From: Bacillota bacterium
Lineage (GTDB): Bacteria; Bacillota_I; Bacilli_A; RF39; UBA660
Reading direction: 5' to 3'
Length of the DNA stretch: 64,000 nt
NCBI GenBank assembly: GCA_015059365.1
Contig: SVAO01000003.1
Span: 3,682 to 67,681 of the forward strand
The first letter of the stretch is position 1. Each line of letters starts with the position of its first letter. Made by a program: the position numbers and the translations under genes. Below the pieces are notes generated by a model. It was not told the origin of the DNA. It saw only the letters and a program-made list of their open reading frames with translations, and did not search any database. Shown piece after piece: positions 1,174 to 14,099 of the stretch.

Positions 1174-3237
1174 TTAATAATCAATTTCTTCTTTAATTTC
1201 TCTCATAGAAGCAGTTGCTTCATTTATTGCATCATCAATTGTTTTGATAGCATCAGTAATCATACTATATCCTATTGCTGCACCAAAACCGTGGGATAAC
1301 GATTTAAATTCTTTATTTAATTTACGAACATAACTTACAATTTGTTTCTCATCATATCCTACCATATAAATTAAGAATTCATTACCATTTGTACGAATAA
1401 TATCACTATTTGGCATTTGAGTAGCAATCAATATGTTAGCCGCCTCACCAATAACTTTATCCCCTTCAGCATGTCCATAATTATCATTTATATATGCTAC
1501 ATTATTTAAATCCATAATAATAATTGTTTGTGGATAAATTTCACTAGCATCCCATTTTTCAATATTATCGTTTAAATAATTACGATTCTTAAGTGAAGTT
1601 AACATATCTATATATTTTAATTTATCTTCTTTAGATAAATTTATTTTTTTAGTTTTCTGTTTCGGTTTAAATAAAGAAATACCTAAAACCACCAATATTG
1701 CCGCACTGATAATTCCAATGATAAGTAGAATTAATCTTTTTAATGAGAATGGTTTATTAGCTAATTGCATTACTTCATAATAACCTTCGTTGGTTAATTC
1801 CTTTTCATTATTAAATGATAAAAAGAAATCTAAAGTTTTAATAAATAAATCATTTTCATTTGTTTTTCTAACTGCAAAATTATAATCATAGCCCAAATCA
1901 AATAATTTAGCTATTTTATAATTTTTCAAAGCACTATTTGAATAATAATTATATGTCTCATAATCAATAACAATAATACTATTATTATTGATTTGGTTCA
2001 TTAAGCTTTCTACATTATCATATACTTTAACCTTAACACCTTTATCCACTAAAGTATCCGCTATACGACTTGATTTTACAGCCATTACTTCATAATTCTT
2101 CAACGAATTAATCGAATTAACAACTATATCATTATTCTGTTTAATAACTACTGCAATCTTTTCATCAAAAGAAGAAACAGTATTAGCAACATCCATATTA
2201 AATGTTAAATATGTCGTATTATTAAACATAATATCTAATTTGTTTTCATTAAAATCTTTTACTAAGGAATCAATATCACTATATTTTTTATAACTAATCT
2301 CAATGTTTGCAAAATCAGAAAACTTTGCCATAAATATATGATTAATTCCTACATATTTACCATCATAAATTAAATCATATGGTGCATTTTCAACAAAACC
2401 ATAGTGATAACGTTTACTTTTAAATTCAACTTTGGCAATATCATCAACATTAGAAAAAGCTAAATAATTATCTAAAAATTGATCTTGATATGATTTTTCA
2501 TAAGAATCATTTTTCCACTTTTTATAATATTTTGTTAATATGTTATTTAATTTATCAGTATTTCCCAATTGTAAAACATAATCTTGAGTTATTTCAGAAA
2601 TATGATAAGCAATGTTTAATTTATCATTAGAAACAATATCTTTGAAATACATCATACGTGGTAAAACAATTGCATCCACAGTTTTCTTTGATTCATCTAT
2701 ATTTGTTAAATCTTCAATCATACTATTGTAACTGTCAAAAGATTTTAATAATAAATTAGAATCAACATTTAAATAAGTATTGATTTTATCAATATCACTA
2801 TTTAACACTCCAATAGTTAAGTTATTAATATCCTCTAAAGTATTAAACTTTTTATTATCATCAGTTATAAGAATATAATTATCCCTATACAAAAGTATTT
2901 GATTACTTCCAACTTTTTCAACAATTTTTAAAGCATAGTCACTTTTTAATTCATCACCAATTTTATAAGCAACTTTATTAAATTCTAACTGAGTATCTTC
3001 CTCTAAATCTGTTAAAAAATCAAAGAATATTCCTTCCCCATTATAAGTAATCATAGGTATATTGTTAATTATTGATAAATCAATTAATTTACTTTTATTC
3101 TTTTCAATCCATTGTTTTTCAATCAACGTTAAAGTTGTATTTTTATCTTGCTTAAATGCCACAAAATAAGTAATTAAACCTACGATTGTCAACACTAAAA
3201 CAATAATAATTGGAATTAATATTTTTTTATTTTTCAT
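1174..3237 (-). CDS. membrane sensor: extracellular substrate-binding-like domains, TM, degenerate GGDEF domain
   Basis: N-terminal TM; second TM near aa 500; DLNNVAYINDNYGHAEGD signature; GGDEF motif replaced by NGNEF. Confidence 0.8.
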   Translation of the reverse strand: MKNKKILIPIIIVLVLTIVGLITYFVAFKQDKNTTLTLIEKQWIEKNKSKLIDLSIINNIPMITYNGEGIFFDFLTDLEEDTQLEFNKVAYKIGDELKSDYALKIVEKVGSNQILLYRDNYILITDDNKKFNTLEDINNLTIGVLNSDIDKINTYLNVDSNLLLKSFDSYNSMIEDLTNIDESKKTVDAIVLPRMMYFKDIVSNDKLNIAYHISEITQDYVLQLGNTDKLNNILTKYYKKWKNDSYEKSYQDQFLDNYLAFSNVDDIAKVEFKSKRYHYGFVENAPYDLIYDGKYVGINHIFMAKFSDFANIEISYKKYSDIDSLVKDFNENKLDIMFNNTTYLTFNMDVANTVSSFDEKIAVVIKQNNDIVVNSINSLKNYEVMAVKSSRIADTLVDKGVKVKVYDNVESLMNQINNNSIIVIDYETYNYYSNSALKNYKIAKLFDLGYDYNFAVRKTNENDLFIKTLDFFLSFNNEKELTNEGYYEVMQLANKPFSLKRLILLIIGIISAAILVVLGISLFKPKQKTKKINLSKEDKLKYIDMLTSLKNRNYLNDNIEKWDASEIYPQTIIIMDLNNVAYINDNYGHAEGDKVIGEAANILIATQMPNSDIIRTNGNEFLIYMVGYDEKQIVSYVRKLNKEFKSLSHGFGAAIGYSMITDAIKTIDDAINEATASMREIKEEIDY

Positions 3238-3700
3238 TTTCTTTTCCTACCTTCTTTGTGGTTGTAAATGATGAATTATTACAATGTTTATAAGCTATCA
3301 TAGGATACAATTCCTCATCCTTCTCACTTGTGACAAACACTTCAAAATCATAAAATTTCTTTTCTTCTTCAGTAAAATTATCTAAAATCAAATTAAGTAA
3401 TGATTGAACCGTCAATTCATCTGTTTCAGACTTAACTTCAATAAATATTTTAATGATACGCCCAGTAAGCCCAAAATAAGTATCATTAGTATTCTTATTA
3501 CCTAAAATTTTTTCTTTCACACTATTAAATCTTAAATCAGTAATTTGAACATTTTCAATACCATTTAAACGGTTACCATATTTATTACCACCATTACTAG
3601 ATAAAAATACTTTAGTAAAACAAAATCCAATAATACCAAATACAATAACATATATTACTATTAATGATATTACTACTTTATGATTTTTAATAAATTTCAT
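3227..3700 (-). CDS. hypothetical membrane-anchored protein
   Basis: 157-aa ORF with N-terminal TM, overlaps the next gene, in operon orientation. Confidence 0.7.
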   Translation of the reverse strand: MKFIKNHKVVISLIVIYVIVFGIIGFCFTKVFLSSNGGNKYGNRLNGIENVQITDLRFNSVKEKILGNKNTNDTYFGLTGRIIKIFIEVKSETDELTVQSLLNLILDNFTEEEKKFYDFEVFVTSEKDEELYPMIAYKHCNNSSFTTTKKVGKENEK

Positions 3701-9397: not shown

Positions 9398-9676
9398 TTA
9401 TTGTTTTATTTTTCTAACATATGCTTCCATCTCTTTTAAAGCATCTCCACGCAAAGGCTTACACTTCTTATAGTTTTGTATTTCTTCTAACATTGCTTTT
9501 GCCATTCCATCACAACTACCATATCCACATGCTCCACAATTATATCCTGGTAAAAGTTTACGAAATTCATCTTCTTTATTTTCCCTACGGTTTAATTTGT
9601 AATCTATAGTTACTAAAATAACACTTAATAGTAAAGCAAGTAAAGTAAGTATTAATATTCCAATCATTTTATACAC
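9398..9676 (-). CDS. rnfB: short RnfB (TM plus N-terminal Fe-S domain only)
   Basis: LPGYNCGACGYGSC..CKP motif; last gene of the rnf cluster; no ferredoxin repeats. Confidence 0.8.
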   Translation of the reverse strand: MYKMIGILILTLLALLLSVILVTIDYKLNRRENKEDEFRKLLPGYNCGACGYGSCDGMAKAMLEEIQNYKKCKPLRGDALKEMEAYVRKIKQ

Positions 9677-9769
9677 CTCTTACATTCACTACAATTTTTT
9701 GAACACTTATTCTTATTATATAAAACTATCGTTAATATAAATAATAAAATTAATATAATAAACCCCATC

Positions 9770-10339
9770 TTATCCTCCTATATATCTAGAAAAAATTAAA
9801 GCCATAATAGATGCAGTAATTAACGCAATGGGTGTTCCTTTAAATGGTTTAGGAACATTAGAAGTATCTAAACGTTCTCTAATAGTTGAAAAAATATATA
9901 TAACTAGTGTAAAGCCTATTCCACTACCAAAACTAAAAATAAGTGTTTCTAATAAAGTAAAACTATTATTTATATTTAATAAAACTGTTCCCAAAACCGC
10001 ACAATTAGTAGTTATAAGAGGTAAATAAATACCTAATGCATCATATAGTTTTTTTGATTTGCTGCGAATAATAATTTCAACAATTTGAACCATTGAAGCA
10101 ATTACTAAAATAAATACAATTGTTTTTAAATATGTAGTATCTGATGGAACCAATACATAATAATATAGTAAATAAGTTATTAAACTAGAAATAGTTACAA
10201 CCCCAGTTACAGCAATTCCCATCATTACCGCATTTTTACTATCCTTAGAATTACCAATAAAAGGACATATACCTAAAAATTTAGTTAAAACTACATTTTC
10301 AGTTAAAATACTTACTATAAATATACTAATTAGATTCAT
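9770..10339 (-). CDS. rnfA: Rnf complex subunit A
   Basis: ENVVLTKFLGICPFIG and LITTNCAVLG; start reassigned to MNLISI. Confidence 0.92.
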   Translation of the reverse strand: MNLISIFIVSILTENVVLTKFLGICPFIGNSKDSKNAVMMGIAVTGVVTISSLITYLLYYYVLVPSDTTYLKTIVFILVIASMVQIVEIIIRSKSKKLYDALGIYLPLITTNCAVLGTVLLNINNSFTLLETLIFSFGSGIGFTLVIYIFSTIRERLDTSNVPKPFKGTPIALITASIMALIFSRYIGG

Positions 10340-10958
10340 CTTTTTCACCTCTTATATAATTAATTATTCCCGCAAATATTCCTAAGGTAAAAAATGCACC
10401 AGGCGGACTAATTAAAAAATTCATTGGAAATAAATTAGATGTTGGTAATTTATAAATTGCTCGGTACCCAGTTAGTGAACTTAGTCCATCCATTAATGTT
10501 ATTGTATTTGAACCTAAAATTTCTCTAAATGAAGCAATTAAAATTAAAGCAATTGTATACCCTAATCCTATTCCTAACGCATCTAACAAGCTTTTTCCTA
10601 CTCTTTCTTTTGAAGCAACGGATAATGCTCGACCTAAGACAATACAATTTACTACTATTAATGGTAAATAAATTCCTAGTGCTTTATATAAAGCTGGAAC
10701 ATAGTTTTGTAATAATAGTTCAACAATAGTTACGAATGTACCTATTATTAAAATATAAACCGGGATTTTTACATTTTCAGGAACTATTTTTTTTATAAGA
10801 GAAACAACAAAATTACTAAATAATAGAATTATTAATACACAAAATCCCATCATATATGCATTTTCTATTTTTGTAGTAACTGCAAGGGCGGGACATAAAC
10901 CTAAAAATAAAACAAAAACCGGATTTTCATTCTTTATACCATTTATTATTGTTTTCAT
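10326..10958 (-). CDS. rnfE: Rnf complex subunit E
   Basis: ENPVFVLFLGLCPALAVT, LIVVNCIVLGRA and PPGAF motifs. Confidence 0.92.
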   Translation of the reverse strand: MKTIINGIKNENPVFVLFLGLCPALAVTTKIENAYMMGFCVLIILLFSNFVVSLIKKIVPENVKIPVYILIIGTFVTIVELLLQNYVPALYKALGIYLPLIVVNCIVLGRALSVASKERVGKSLLDALGIGLGYTIALILIASFREILGSNTITLMDGLSSLTGYRAIYKLPTSNLFPMNFLISPPGAFFTLGIFAGIINYIRGEKDESN

Positions 10959-10961
10959 ATT

Positions 10962-11057
10962 TCACCTCGTTAACATTACAACTAAATATAATAAACTTGA
11001 ACAAATTAAAGCAGTTATGGTTAAAACTAAAACACCTTGTAATTTTTTATTTTCCAT
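10962..11057 (-). CDS. 31-aa single-TM micro-protein resembling the RnfG N-terminal anchor
   Basis: MENKKLQGVLVLTITALICSSLLYLVVMLTR; overlaps the rnfD stop, ends 3 nt before the rnfE ATG; AAGGAG upstream (alternative in-frame ATG at 11069). Confidence 0.6.
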   Translation of the reverse strand: MENKKLQGVLVLTITALICSSLLYLVVMLTR

Positions 11058-12813
11058 ATGTTTTATCATACTCCTTTTTGGTATTAATAACTGCTTTTCT
11101 TAAACTATCAGATGAAATGGTTGCCCCACTTATACTATCAACATTATCCAATCTTTGCTGGTTTTCAATTAATTTCTGAATATAATTATTATCAATTATT
11201 AAATTAAAATATGAATCACTTTGTTCTATGACTGTAATTGATTCTATAATCGCATTTTCAAAAGTTATTTTTAAATCCAAATTACCACCAAAACTTTGTT
11301 GCCTAACTTCATAAATAATTTTGCCATTTTCTTCTTTACTACTCATAACTTGAAAATTAGAATTATTATCTTCTTTAAAATCAGTACCATTATAATCATT
11401 AAGTACATTTATAATCATTTGTTTTAAAGCTCTAGATGTTACAGTTGCACCACTTACAGTATCCAAATTATTAAGATTTTTTTGATAAGATACTAGTTTT
11501 TCTATATATTTCTCATCCACTATCTTTTGATAAAAAGATTCATTTTGTTCAATAATTTCTATACTAACTATTTTACCATTATCAATAATAATATTCCCTT
11601 TTAAAAGTCCTGAATAACCTTTTTGGGTAACAACATAATTAGTATTATTCTCAATAATTTCTTTAGAAATAATATTAAAGTTAGAATCTTTAACTGTAGA
11701 ATCAGCTTTAAAACTATTTCCTATAAAACCACTTACAACAATTATTAAAAACCAAGCTATCAAAAATGGAATTATAGCTTTCTTAAAACTAAATCTCGCC
11801 TTTGCACCTATTCTATCAATAATAAAAACCATCATATTCATAGTAAGAATACTTGTTAATACACCTTCTGGAAATGGAGTTAAATACCTAAAAACCACAG
11901 TTAATATACCCAAAAATAATCCATATAAAACTTGCCCTATTGGAGTTGTAGGACTAGTAACCGGATCAGTAGCCATAAAAACAGCACCAAACATTAATCC
12001 ACCACTAAATATTTGAAATAATGGATACCAAATACCTAAACCATTAATACTACCAATCATATATGTCATTAAAAAAACCGTTAAAATATACATTGTTGGA
12101 ATTTTCCATTTTATAACTTTAGTAATAGTTAAATAAATAAAACCAACAATACATAATAACGCACTAACTTCGCCTAACGAACCGGGAATCATTCCTATAA
12201 AAAAATTCCAAAGACTTCCATACGGTAAAACTAATGTCTCATAAGTTCCAATACCAGAAACTAAGGATGCATTAGATAATGGAGTCGCTAAAGACAATGT
12301 ATCTAACTCATATTGATTTAAATATCCACCATTCTTGCTAATAACTACAGCATACGATGAAATTATAAATAATCTTCCTATTAAGGCGGGATTAAAAATA
12401 TTATTACCAAATCCACCAAACAATAATTTCCCGACAAAAGTTGCCATAAATGCTCCAAAAATCACAATTGAAATTGGAGTATTAATAGGAAGAATAAGTC
12501 CTAAAAAAAGACCTGGAAATATACTAAAAGAGCTACTTAAATATTTCTTTAAACCATCCTTTTTTTTCTTTAAGAAAAATAAAGCATATAAAACCTCTAT
12601 TAAAAATGAAGTGATAGTAGGAATTAAAATAAATAATAACGGATTAAACATTTCCACAAAATTGATATAACCTTTATTATAAGGAATTATCCCATTTTTA
12701 TAAAAAGAAAATAAGATTATTGGTAATAATGCAATTAATAAATGAACCATATTTTTATTAGTTGAATTATTATGCTTTTTAAATGGTCCAATATTCAAAT
12801 GAAAATCTTTCAC
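11047..12813 (-). CDS. rnfD: RnfD fused to two C-terminal FMN-binding (RnfG-like) domains
   Basis: RnfD core (NIFNPAL, SLATPL, ATDPVTSP) then an extra TM and two SGAT flavinylation motifs (DTVSGATVTS, DSISGATISS). Confidence 0.9.
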   Translation of the reverse strand: MKDFHLNIGPFKKHNNSTNKNMVHLLIALLPIILFSFYKNGIIPYNKGYINFVEMFNPLLFILIPTITSFLIEVLYALFFLKKKKDGLKKYLSSSFSIFPGLFLGLILPINTPISIVIFGAFMATFVGKLLFGGFGNNIFNPALIGRLFIISSYAVVISKNGGYLNQYELDTLSLATPLSNASLVSGIGTYETLVLPYGSLWNFFIGMIPGSLGEVSALLCIVGFIYLTITKVIKWKIPTMYILTVFLMTYMIGSINGLGIWYPLFQIFSGGLMFGAVFMATDPVTSPTTPIGQVLYGLFLGILTVVFRYLTPFPEGVLTSILTMNMMVFIIDRIGAKARFSFKKAIIPFLIAWFLIIVVSGFIGNSFKADSTVKDSNFNIISKEIIENNTNYVVTQKGYSGLLKGNIIIDNGKIVSIEIIEQNESFYQKIVDEKYIEKLVSYQKNLNNLDTVSGATVTSRALKQMIINVLNDYNGTDFKEDNNSNFQVMSSKEENGKIIYEVRQQSFGGNLDLKITFENAIIESITVIEQSDSYFNLIIDNNYIQKLIENQQRLDNVDSISGATISSDSLRKAVINTKKEYDKTYGK

Positions 12814-14099
12814 TTCTTACCATTCCCTTCTTTTTTTATAAGTGTTTTAGCTTCTTTCACACATTCTCTAATGTTAATTTTTGAAGGACAAACATACGAG
12901 CACAAACCACACTCAATACATTTATCAGCGTTTAATCCTGTTAAAGATTCTACTTTAGATAGACTATCTTTTATTAAAACTGGTGATAATTTAGAAGGAC
13001 ATATAGAAACACATTTGCCACATCTAAAACACTCTAAAGATTTTTCTTTGTTAAGTTTCTTCATAACTAATACGCAATTTAAATTAGATGCGATAACAAA
13101 ATCATCATCAGCAATACTACTACCCATCATTGGTCCACCAGCACAAATTACAACATCTTTGTTACGTTTATATCCACCTATTGCTTCAATAACATCTTTA
13201 ACTGGCGTCCCTATTTTTACATAAACATTTTGAGGATTTTTTAACATATCGCCAGTAAATGTGACTATTCTTTCAATTAATGGCTTATTATACTTTAATG
13301 CTTCATAAATCGCATAAATTGTTGATATATTATTTACTACAATTCCTTTTTCTAAGGGAGTGGTCCTATAATTAATATTTTTTATATATTTAACTAAATT
13401 TTTTTCCCATCCTATCGGATAAATATTTGGTAAAGTAACAAGTTTTATTTTTGGGTAAGTACCCAGATAATTTTCAAATAGTTCATTTATTGTAGTATCT
13501 TTTTTTACTCCAATAAAACATTCTTTAATACCATTGATTTCCATGATAGCATCTATTGCTTCCAAAATTTCTTCACACTTTTCTTTTATTAAAACAAAGT
13601 CTGCCGTAATATAAGGTTCACATTCAACTGCATTTACAATCAATGTTTTCAACTTCTTATTAGTATTATATTTTACATAAGTAGGAAATCCAAATCCACC
13701 CATTCCAATAATTCCACATTCTTGTAAGCGACTAACAAACTCTTCATGTGAAAAATTATTAATTTTATTTCTAACAGCTTGCTTTTCCTCTATCTTTTCT
13801 TTAAAATCATTCTCTATTACAACACATTTTACTAAAGTTCCATCTATATATTTTTTCTCTACAAAATCTATTACTACTCCACTTACACTAGAATGGATTG
13901 GAAGCCTAAAATTTCCCTTTCTTTTGGCAACTATAGACCCTTTATATATATAATCACCTTTTTTTACAACAGTAGTAATATTCCTATCATCACCACTGAT
14001 TAAGGGGATATAAACATATTTAGGTCTAGTAAAAAAATTCAATTTTCTTTTTTTAGTTAATTCTTTTCCTGCATCTATCTTTGTTCCTACAATCATCAT
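12810..14099 (-). CDS. rnfC: Rnf complex subunit C
   Basis: IHSSVSG, GMGGFGFPT, NAVECEPYIT and two CxxCxxCxxxCP clusters. Confidence 0.93.
   Translation of the reverse strand: MMIVGTKIDAGKELTKKRKLNFFTRPKYVYIPLISGDDRNITTVVKKGDYIYKGSIVAKRKGNFRLPIHSSVSGVVIDFVEKKYIDGTLVKCVVIENDFKEKIEEKQAVRNKINNFSHEEFVSRLQECGIIGMGGFGFPTYVKYNTNKKLKTLIVNAVECEPYITADFVLIKEKCEEILEAIDAIMEINGIKECFIGVKKDTTINELFENYLGTYPKIKLVTLPNIYPIGWEKNLVKYIKNINYRTTPLEKGIVVNNISTIYAIYEALKYNKPLIERIVTFTGDMLKNPQNVYVKIGTPVKDVIEAIGGYKRNKDVVICAGGPMMGSSIADDDFVIASNLNCVLVMKKLNKEKSLECFRCGKCVSICPSKLSPVLIKDSLSKVESLTGLNADKCIECGLCSYVCPSKINIRECVKEAKTLIKKEGNGKK

Follow-up and report, generated by a model that had tools for sequence, protein, structure and literature searches.

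A conserved micro-gene at the rnfG position of a gut Bacilli Rnf operon, a probable RnfG anchor helix kept without its flavin domain

A stretch of 64,000 nucleotides from a Bacillota bacterium (contig SVAO01000003.1 of assembly GCA_015059365.1, lineage UBA660), referred to below as the window, carries an operon for the Rnf complex in which a micro-gene of 31 codons (10962..11057, minus strand; product MENKKLQGVLVLTITALICSSLLYLVVMLTR) occupies the position of rnfG. The host is an uncultured gut bacterium with a genome of ~0.9 Mb and a G+C content of 27%, and its relatives were deposited as metagenome-assembled genomes (MAGs) of uncultured Bacilli, Mollicutes or Tenericutes. The micro-protein is the N-terminal transmembrane (TM) helix of RnfG, cut 1-10 residues past the membrane and devoid of the flavin domain. 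As a whole, the findings are best explained by a remnant of rnfG that was left by a deletion and is probably kept as a structural micro-subunit of the module formed by RnfA, RnfE and RnfB. The evidence comprises the conservation of the micro-gene and the selection acting on it, the similarity of its product to the N-termini of RnfG and its loss together with rnfE, rnfA and rnfB.

Conservation and selection of the micro-gene

All Rnf genes of the window were read on the minus strand as a tightly coupled operon. The micro-gene, located between rnfD and rnfE, fills the rnfG slot of the rnfCDGEAB operon, and the same order was found in 35 genomes and in locus L113. Its open reading frame (ORF) runs from an ATG at 11057 to a TGA at 10962-10964, and its start overlaps the stop of the rnfD-fusion gene by 11 nt in a different frame. 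The ATG of rnfE lies at 10958, after a gap of 3 nt (AAT), and the final codons of the micro-ORF, ACG AGG TGA, contain the GAGGTG that constitutes the rnfE Shine-Dalgarno (SD) sequence. The description given by the initial annotation of this DNA, namely an ORF overlapping the rnfD stop, ending 3 nt before rnfE and containing the rnfE ribosome-binding site, holds base for base. An alternative upstream ATG at 11069 would give a product of 35 aa; since it lies only 1 nt after an AAGGAG and is absent in relatives, 11057 was taken as the true start.

A total of 110 related loci were retrieved and oriented on rnfD. An ORF of 28-33 codons appeared in the same slot in 37 of them (35 distinct sequences), which have a fusion of RnfD with flavin mononucleotide (FMN)-binding domains followed by rnfE. 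The 35 genomes span 45-72% RnfD identity, and the mean pairwise amino acid identity among them was 44% for the micro-protein, 54.5% for RnfE and 50% for the RnfD fusion. The 35 micro-proteins aligned without any internal gap, giving the consensus MxxKxKxILVLTLTAFICSxLIYLV, in which L12, T13, C19 and Y24 were each present in 31-33 sequences (at least 88%). An ATG start was found in all 35 micro-ORFs, preceded in 32 of them by an SD core at -18 to -4 (background 16.5%). None of the 1067 in-frame codons was a stop, whereas the two other frames contained 194 and 58 stops, and the entropy by codon position (1.13, 0.64 and 1.37 bits) followed a coding pattern. A search for the peptide at the same position in relatives with the same RnfD fusion had been suggested beforehand, and the ORF was kept there; because it is found at this position in 35 distinct genomes with neither an in-frame stop nor an internal indel, it is a real gene, far beyond chance.

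The selection acting on the micro-gene was estimated by maximum likelihood (ML) under the GY94 codon model on a fixed RnfD+RnfE tree. With this tree, the micro-ORF had an omega of 0.034 and rnfE one of 0.032; the synonymous sites are saturated, and both values are therefore rough. Freeing omega gave the micro-ORF a log-likelihood (lnL) of -2485.1; under omega=1 it fell to -2714.9, a cost of 229.8 units (2dlnL=460) by which neutrality was rejected. This likelihood-ratio test, together with a set of independent pairs, replaced the NG86 estimates over all 595 pairs, which were skewed by synonymous saturation and AT bias. Pooled over 17 phylogenetically independent pairs, NG86 dN/dS values were 0.41 for the micro-ORF, 0.35 for rnfE and 0.37 for rnfD, all of them inflated by saturation. 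The micro-gene is under strong purifying selection, and the earlier claim that the helix survives as an independent small gene was borne out by the dN/dS check that had been proposed for it, carried out here with the ML codon model.

Moreover, a profile search of 1.84 billion representative proteins returned 57 matches at E<=0.001, 56 of which were 29-45 aa long and aligned over their full length. The exact 31-aa peptide is already called, as an unnamed gene, on 16 contigs in public collections. The micro-protein family is discrete and widespread, and some pipelines call the micro-gene but leave it unnamed. Profile searches of Pfam, NCBIfam (E<=10) and PDB with the peptide yielded no family, only TM matches at chance level. 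Across contigs from four samples, the main strain had no variant inside the micro-ORF, the overall variation being too low to be informative.

Relation to RnfG and origin of the RnfD-fused flavin module

A profile of the 35 micro-peptides was compared by hhalign with a profile built from 24 full-length outgroup RnfG proteins, and columns 1-32 of the former aligned to columns 1-32 of the latter with a probability of 96.9% and E=1.5e-10. As controls, the micro-peptide profile reached E=0.05 with the eleventh TM helix of the RnfD fusion (TM11), E=0.08 with the TM helix of protein X (see below) and ~1e-4 with the anchor helices of RnfB. The RnfG N-termini of sister clades, MNKGLISGLVLLVIGLVCGVLLAFVNSLTAPVI and MKNNLITGLVLSIFALICGLF, have a basic tip, an LVL core and a Cys-Gly/Ser pair in common with the micro-protein. 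In particular, the counterpart of Cys19 is found in these full-length sister-clade proteins (GLVCG and ALICG), and this residue was therefore inherited and is not new. Furthermore, several library matches of 38-41 aa run on into the LTxPxIE hallmark that follows the RnfG helix (YFVYNLTLPIIEKGV and YFVYELTDPLIEFIIKG; motifs YNLTLPIIEKG and YELTDPLIE), and one family member of this length stands in the context rnfC, rnfD-FMN (479 aa), micro-gene, rnfE, rnfA and rnfB (89 aa). The FMN_bind domain with the flavinylated Thr (S/T-G-A-T/S) is absent from the micro-protein, which ends at residue 31 and gave no PF04205 or TIGR01947 match at E<=10. Without the FMN domain, the micro-protein is not a functional RnfG but its anchor only. 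The profile comparison, which had been put forward as a check, together with the synteny and the LTxPxIE motif of the longer relatives, supports the identification of the peptide as the RnfG anchor made in the initial annotation.

Longer members of the family (35-41 aa) with the start of the RnfG linker helix (LTLPIIEKG, LTDPLIE or LTQPLIS) were observed in the library (P0034, P0045, P0048 and P0061) and in loci L112-L114, and by their sequences they look like milder truncations. The best non-RnfG match of the micro-peptide profile was the RnfB anchor helix of the clade (MIGILIITLTALILG), whose TLTAL motif resembles LTLTAFICS of the micro-protein; the likeness may reflect a shared packing motif, the two helices being neighbours in solved complexes.

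As for the flavin domains, a paralogous module was fused to RnfD first, and the domain of RnfG itself was deleted later. In relatives from the Izemoplasmatales and Acholeplasmataceae, rnfD is followed by a separate gene X (a TM helix with one or two FMN_bind domains) and then by a normal rnfG. The module was found fused to RnfD alongside a full-length RnfG in L013, in the Acholeplasmatales-type MAGs L078 and L081, in Erysipelotrichaceae and in Proteiniclasticum, and such coexistence of fusion and full-length RnfG was recorded in L013 and 13 other outgroup loci. In a quick tree of RnfD, all the micro-gene loci fell into one clade (54 rows; approximate likelihood-ratio test support of 93), with L013 (fusion and a 168-aa RnfG) at its unresolved base and the group carrying rnfD, X and rnfG as its sister. 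A tree of 122 FMN_bind domains was also built, in which the clade descending from the most recent common ancestor of the fused domains of the micro-gene clade contained 54 domains (first and second, including the fused domain of L013) and no RnfG domain, its support being 0.80. Immediately outside this clade, and still apart from RnfG, were the second domains from L014, L035 and L041, and the RnfG domain of L013 grouped with the other RnfGs. Identity was 32% between fused domains 1 and 2, compared with 18-20% between fused and RnfG domains. The second fused domain arose by an old duplication inside the fused lineage and is present in some members only, and single-domain fusions accompanied by the micro-gene are common.

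The AlphaFold2 (AF2) model of the C-terminal module in the window (predicted local distance difference test, pLDDT, of 82.9) consists of a TM helix and two compact beta4-alpha domains. Its top Foldseek match was domain 1 of CbFMN4 (8p2b; TM-score 0.80, 32% identity), the matches to RnfG (8rb9_G and 8ahx_G) and NqrC (8a1u_C) being weaker. HH scores fail to separate the closeness of the fused module to gene X from that to RnfG, both being reached via FMN_bind with E ~1e-15 to 1e-17; the question of its origin is settled by the coexistence of fusion and RnfG, the domain tree and the fold match.

These results bear on a proposal of the initial annotation, according to which a split of rnfG transferred its own FMN domain to the C-terminus of RnfD, where it was duplicated, and left the helix behind. 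The gene order (rnfD-FMN-FMN, helix, rnfE) does resemble such an event, and the fused domains belong to Pfam FMN_bind, as does the domain of RnfG. However, a split is very improbable, as it is contradicted by the loci with both fusion and full-length RnfG and by the module occurring as separate gene X in Izemoplasmatales, by the 54-domain clade devoid of RnfG domains and the placement of the L013 RnfG domain, by the single-domain fusions and by a fold closest to that of multi-flavin-protein domains; moreover, TM11, which serves as the linker, shows no relationship to the helix of RnfG. Of the proposal, the duplication stands, since domain 2 is an old copy of fused domain 1, but the source was not the domain of RnfG.

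Co-loss with rnfE, rnfA and rnfB and the role of the helix

Within the clade, the micro-gene was present in every fusion locus that retains rnfE, rnfA and rnfB, with L039 as the sole exception, and it was absent from all the loci that have only rnfC and the rnfD fusion. A hidden Markov model (HMM) scan of the six frames of the latter loci found no displaced copy. Whole-genome searches detected no rnfE or rnfA in G003 and G006, both from the genus of the window, or in G015, G025 and G013, and the losses of rnfE/A/B mapped to several separate branches of the RnfD tree. Because this co-loss occurred on several separate branches, the micro-gene travels with the A/E/B module and not with the adjoining RnfD-flavin module. 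Furthermore, in four genomes the micro-gene was kept although the insertion of an unrelated ORF of 178-276 aa has separated it from rnfE, which argues against a pure translational-coupling role.

The inserted ORFs (2958-3494 in L009/L055, 5537-6076 in L043, 5492-6061 in L044 and 4040-4870 in L035) had no Pfam match. The loci reduced to rnfC and the RnfD-FMN fusion, with loss of the micro-gene, rnfE, rnfA, the second micro-gene of the operon (micro2) and rnfB, were L005 and L006 (G003 and G006), L011, L033, L059, L060, L063, L066, L073 and L097, and in four of them (L059, L060, L073 and L097) the fused domain did not match the simple SGAT pattern. By analogy, they look like a two-gene chain from NADH to an extracytoplasmic flavin, with a logic like that of the NQR/RNF-like systems of PMC8238504. 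In L005, a 21-codon ORF after rnfD (3221-3286) starts with MQINKKLQ, resembling MKNKKLQG of the micro-gene; it may be the scar of a deletion from the 3' part of the micro-gene through rnfB, being too short for proof. Degenerate RnfE/RnfA-like genes were observed after the fusion in L039 (5701-6303), L045 (5890-6423) and L014 (3223-3750). RnfE of L039, the locus in which the micro-gene is missing, has GITPALAMTT in place of GLCPALA, with loss of a cluster Cys, while RnfE of L045 is devoid of the N-terminal motif and the micro-protein of this locus is the most divergent one.

In solved Rnf complexes, the helices of RnfB and RnfG form a four-helix bundle with one helix each of RnfA and RnfE, and the RnfG TM helix is 'remote' from RnfD (PMC9588780); TM1B, the anchor of RnfB, interacts with TM1G of RnfG in A. 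woodii (PMC11889175). Together with the co-loss, this bundle fits the structural role that the initial annotation had ascribed to the helix, and both suggest the place that the peptide would have in the complex. According to the favoured explanation, the ancestor of the small-genome gut Bacilli clade would have had an RnfD extended at its C-terminus by an additional TM helix and by a compact FMN domain, extracytoplasmic and paralogous to that of RnfG. The flavin domain of RnfG would then have been deleted and the N-terminal TM helix kept, with its basic tip inside, ~20 hydrophobic residues and a stop just past 'LT'. This helix would be translated separately from its own ATG and SD, in translational coupling with rnfD upstream and rnfE downstream. 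It would take the place of TM1G in the four-helix bundle with the RnfB anchor, one RnfA helix and one RnfE helix, holding RnfB on the ion-translocating RnfA/E module. The RnfD-tethered FMN domain or domains would replace the RnfG flavin and supply the shuttle between the [2Fe-2S] cluster of RnfA/E and the RnfD flavin. Since a flavin domain tethered to the C-terminus of RnfD cannot supply the bundle helix, the latter would have to be kept.

Several points weigh against this explanation. The E ~1e-4 obtained with the RnfB helices measures the background similarity of TM helices in short profiles, and the saturation noted above limits the precision of the omega values. Conservation along the micro-protein helix had no 100-degree periodicity (3540 of 5000 shuffles reached the observed power), so that a one-sided packing interface was not demonstrated; a conservation spread around the helix is compatible with a buried position in a bundle and no proof of it. 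No RNA, Ribo-seq or proteomic runs with this organism were found, the locus appearing in DNA metagenomes only. The fused FMN domains, of ~83 aa, are of the multi-flavin-protein type, without the extra elements of RnfG/NqrC, and they are putative shuttles between RnfA/E and RnfD. The only candidates for the mobile FMN are the two FMN_bind domains fused to RnfD or an FMN_bind lipoprotein encoded elsewhere in the genome next to ApbE, and the latter could take part instead of the fused domains. Apart from the RnfD fusion, this 144-aa lipoprotein, with the lipobox LGSTGC and DAVSGCT instead of SGAT, is the sole protein with an FMN_bind domain; its gene lies on G000 contig C9:47400-49800 (L111 and L117), together with those of ApbE and of two membrane proteins of 127 aa and 166 aa.

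Other roles were weighed for the micro-gene. The peptide could be real and selected and act as an assembly or insertion factor for RnfA/E/B, that is, as a membrane-insertion or cluster-loading chaperone and not as a stoichiometric subunit of the mature complex. The co-loss with rnfE/A/B would speak for it as well, the conservation around the whole helix with the near-invariant Cys19, Thr13 and Tyr24 could mean more than passive packing, the same operon has a second Cys-rich micro-gene, and there is a precedent in NqrM, a small single-TM maturation factor of Na+-NQR. This role is nonetheless considered unlikely: Cys19 was inherited from full-length RnfG, neither micro-gene matched NqrM (PF04400) or other known small Rnf/Nqr accessory families at E<=10 beyond chance TM similarity, and the helix is derived from TM1G, which belongs permanently to the complexes of known structure (PMC9588780, PMC11889175). 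An even smaller probability was assigned to an ORF that merely bridges translation from rnfD to rnfE and encodes a functionless peptide. The ORF does overlap or abut the rnfD stop and contain the rnfE SD, and in most loci its end falls in the range from 4 nt inside rnfE to 14 nt upstream of the rnfE start. However, amino acid-level selection is as strong as that on rnfE and far from neutrality, specific positions are conserved without indels, the ORF is kept where a gene of 178-276 aa separates it from rnfE, and a constant hydrophobic helix of 28-33 aa is not needed for bridging.

The ORF could also be thought to be a chance one or an untranslated, decaying pseudogene remnant, in view of its shortness, the missing family match and the missing expression data. 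Such an origin is already refuted by the conservation data and retains practically no probability: ~8% of random codons are stops at 27% G+C, yet none was found in the 1067 codons from 35 genomes with saturated synonymous sites, and the ATG is invariant, the SD present and omega far below 1. Regarding possible joined products, an in-frame read-through from the micro-gene across TGA-AAT into rnfE (table 4), considered as a folding pseudo-complex, was rejected as an artefact, as its 2-residue linker joins an outside C-terminus to the N-terminus of RnfE, which is probably inside by NqrD homology. A programmed frameshift or read-through joining the helix to RnfD was likewise discarded, given that the overlap (-2 to 17 nt) and the frame vary, each copy carries an ATG and an SD of its own, and such a product would have an inverted topology.

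Gene content of the operon and relation to known systems

The gene order in the window is rnfC, rnfD fusion, micro-gene, rnfE, rnfA, micro2 and rnfB. RnfC, the NADH-side subunit (12810..14099, minus strand; 429 aa), matched TIGR01945 with 365.9 bits and the Pfam families RnfC_N, Complex1_51K, SLBB and Fer4. The rnfD-fusion ORF (11047-12813, minus strand; 588 aa, with its TAA at 11047-11049) encodes an RnfD core, the extra TM helix and two FMN_bind domains. The core spans about residues 1-341 (11791..12813; PF03116 at residues 9-341, E=2.2e-77), and its flavinylation site T177-P-L is invariant in the RnfD alignment. TM11, at about residues 347-371 (11701..11775; KKAIIPFLIAWFLIIVVSGFIGNSF), was read from the sequence and corresponds to a helix at residues 8-32 of the module in the AF2 model. 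It carries the C-terminus of the RnfD fusion outside; the RnfD C-terminus is cytoplasmic in 7ZC6 (PMC9588780). The two tandem compact FMN_bind domains (11050..11691), each matching PF04205, have the motifs DTVSGAT and DSISGAT, and ApbE is encoded in the genome, both fused domains having SGAT sites.

Downstream of the micro-gene and also on the minus strand, rnfE (10326..10958; 210 aa) has the cluster-ligating Cys motifs GLCPALA and VNCIVLG (PF02508, E=3.3e-61; NF009070, 229 bits), and rnfA (9770..10348; ~189-192 aa) has GICPF and TNCAVLG (TIGR01943, 235 bits). The last gene, a short rnfB (9398..9667; 89 aa from an ATG at 9667), encodes only a TM helix and the FdI/PF04060 [4Fe-4S] domain (PF04060, E=4.7e-11; TIGR01944 matched with its N-terminal part only), with the Cys motif NCGACGYGSC as read from the sequence. 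RnfB is similarly short in sister clades (83-105 aa) and equally short in T. maritima (PMC9588780). Thus, RnfC, D, E, A and B are all encoded, and the cofactor sites of the Rnf complex are present, namely the four Cys of RnfA/E, the flavinylation Thr of RnfD and the FdI Cys motif of RnfB.

Between rnfA and rnfB, micro2 (9664..9768, minus strand; 34 aa, MGFIILILLFILTIVLYNKNKCSKNCSECKRCIK) encodes a TM helix followed by YNKNK and a Cys-rich C-x4-C-x2-C-x2-C tail. It has its own GGAGG and ATG and shares an ATGA overlap with rnfB. Copies with 3-4 Cys each were found in 29 of the 32 loci of the micro-gene clade that were long enough to test. Neither Pfam nor NCBIfam gave a family match for micro2, and tblastn with the copy of the window found no match in sister-clade loci. 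The product of micro2 may serve as a micro-subunit that binds metal or FeS, or else load clusters in a manner analogous to NqrM.

A wider picture, held tentatively and with slightly less than even confidence, would be that of a re-partitioned eight-gene Rnf, in which two polypeptides share out the two functions of RnfG, the shuttle is tethered to RnfD via the eleventh helix, an obligatory 3.5-kDa anchor subunit nucleates the RnfB/RnfA/RnfE bundle, and micro2 is a further, undescribed subunit or a cluster-loading factor. To our knowledge, all structural work on Rnf and Na+-NQR has treated the helix of RnfG/NqrC as the tether of a mobile flavin domain. The micro-gene clade amounts to a natural deletion experiment in which the flavin domain is gone and the helix has been kept for very long (saturated synonymous sites, at least 35 species and an omega equal to that of rnfE). 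A helix that is kept without the flavin domain and discarded only with RnfE/A/B points to an independent structural role in the ion-translocating module, which is probably the docking of RnfB. If so, TM1G would have a structural importance of its own beyond tethering, and the clade would provide a natural minimal system for studying the function of the RnfG/NqrC anchor in Rnf and in Na+-NQR. In addition, RnfD may be the side from which the flavin shuttle is tethered. A conserved family of ~30-aa micro-proteins, unnamed or uncalled, is added to a major energy-conserving complex of gut anaerobes, giving annotation pipelines a concrete micro-gene to recognise. The finding extends the known Rnf system and leaves the overall picture of the enzyme unchanged, being mainly of interest to specialists in Rnf/Nqr and in micro-proteins.

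Among other membrane redox systems, CydX of cytochrome bd and NqrM of Na+-NQR are single-TM peptides of ~30-60 aa that are encoded in the operon of their redox complex, the assembly or stability of which depends on them. The micro-protein is like them, as they are generally described, in being a single-TM peptide encoded inside a membrane redox operon. In contrast, it has no sequence relation to them (no Pfam/NCBIfam match), and its origin is traceable to the truncated anchor of a catalytic subunit.

The fused module, for its part, is similar to the multi-flavinylated FMN_bind modules CbFMN4 and SaFMN3 (8p2b and 8p2a; PMC10339131), with compact domains of ~83 aa and SGAT sites for ApbE. RNF clusters with extra or multi-flavinylated modules have either a multi-flavinylated RnfG or separate proteins next to a complete RnfG (PMC8238504, PMC10339131), whereas here the module is fused to RnfD through the eleventh TM helix and RnfG is left without its flavin domain. 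Multi-flavinylated RnfGs and partial NQR/RNF-like systems were described by Meheust et al. 2021 (PMC8238504), but no helix-only RnfG, and in a 2025 review of RNF/NQR (PMC12174285) the words 'fusion', 'fused' and 'truncated' do not occur, nor is a fused or truncated RnfG mentioned. The combination of a helix-only RnfG with an RnfD-fused module was not found described in PMC8238504, PMC10339131 or PMC12174285.

Finally, the micro-protein was compared with the canonical RnfG/NqrC anchor TM1G (C. tetanomorphum 7ZC6, A. woodii, and A. vinelandii 8AHX/8RB9). They are alike in the position between rnfD and rnfE and in the basic tip of an N-in helix, and they share the core ..L.L....(I/V)C(G/S).. and the LT motif at the end of the helix. 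In contrast to canonical RnfG, the micro-protein has neither the linker helix nor the whole FMN-binding domain with the flavinylated Thr (~140 residues), while the conservation of T13 and Y24 is specific to it.

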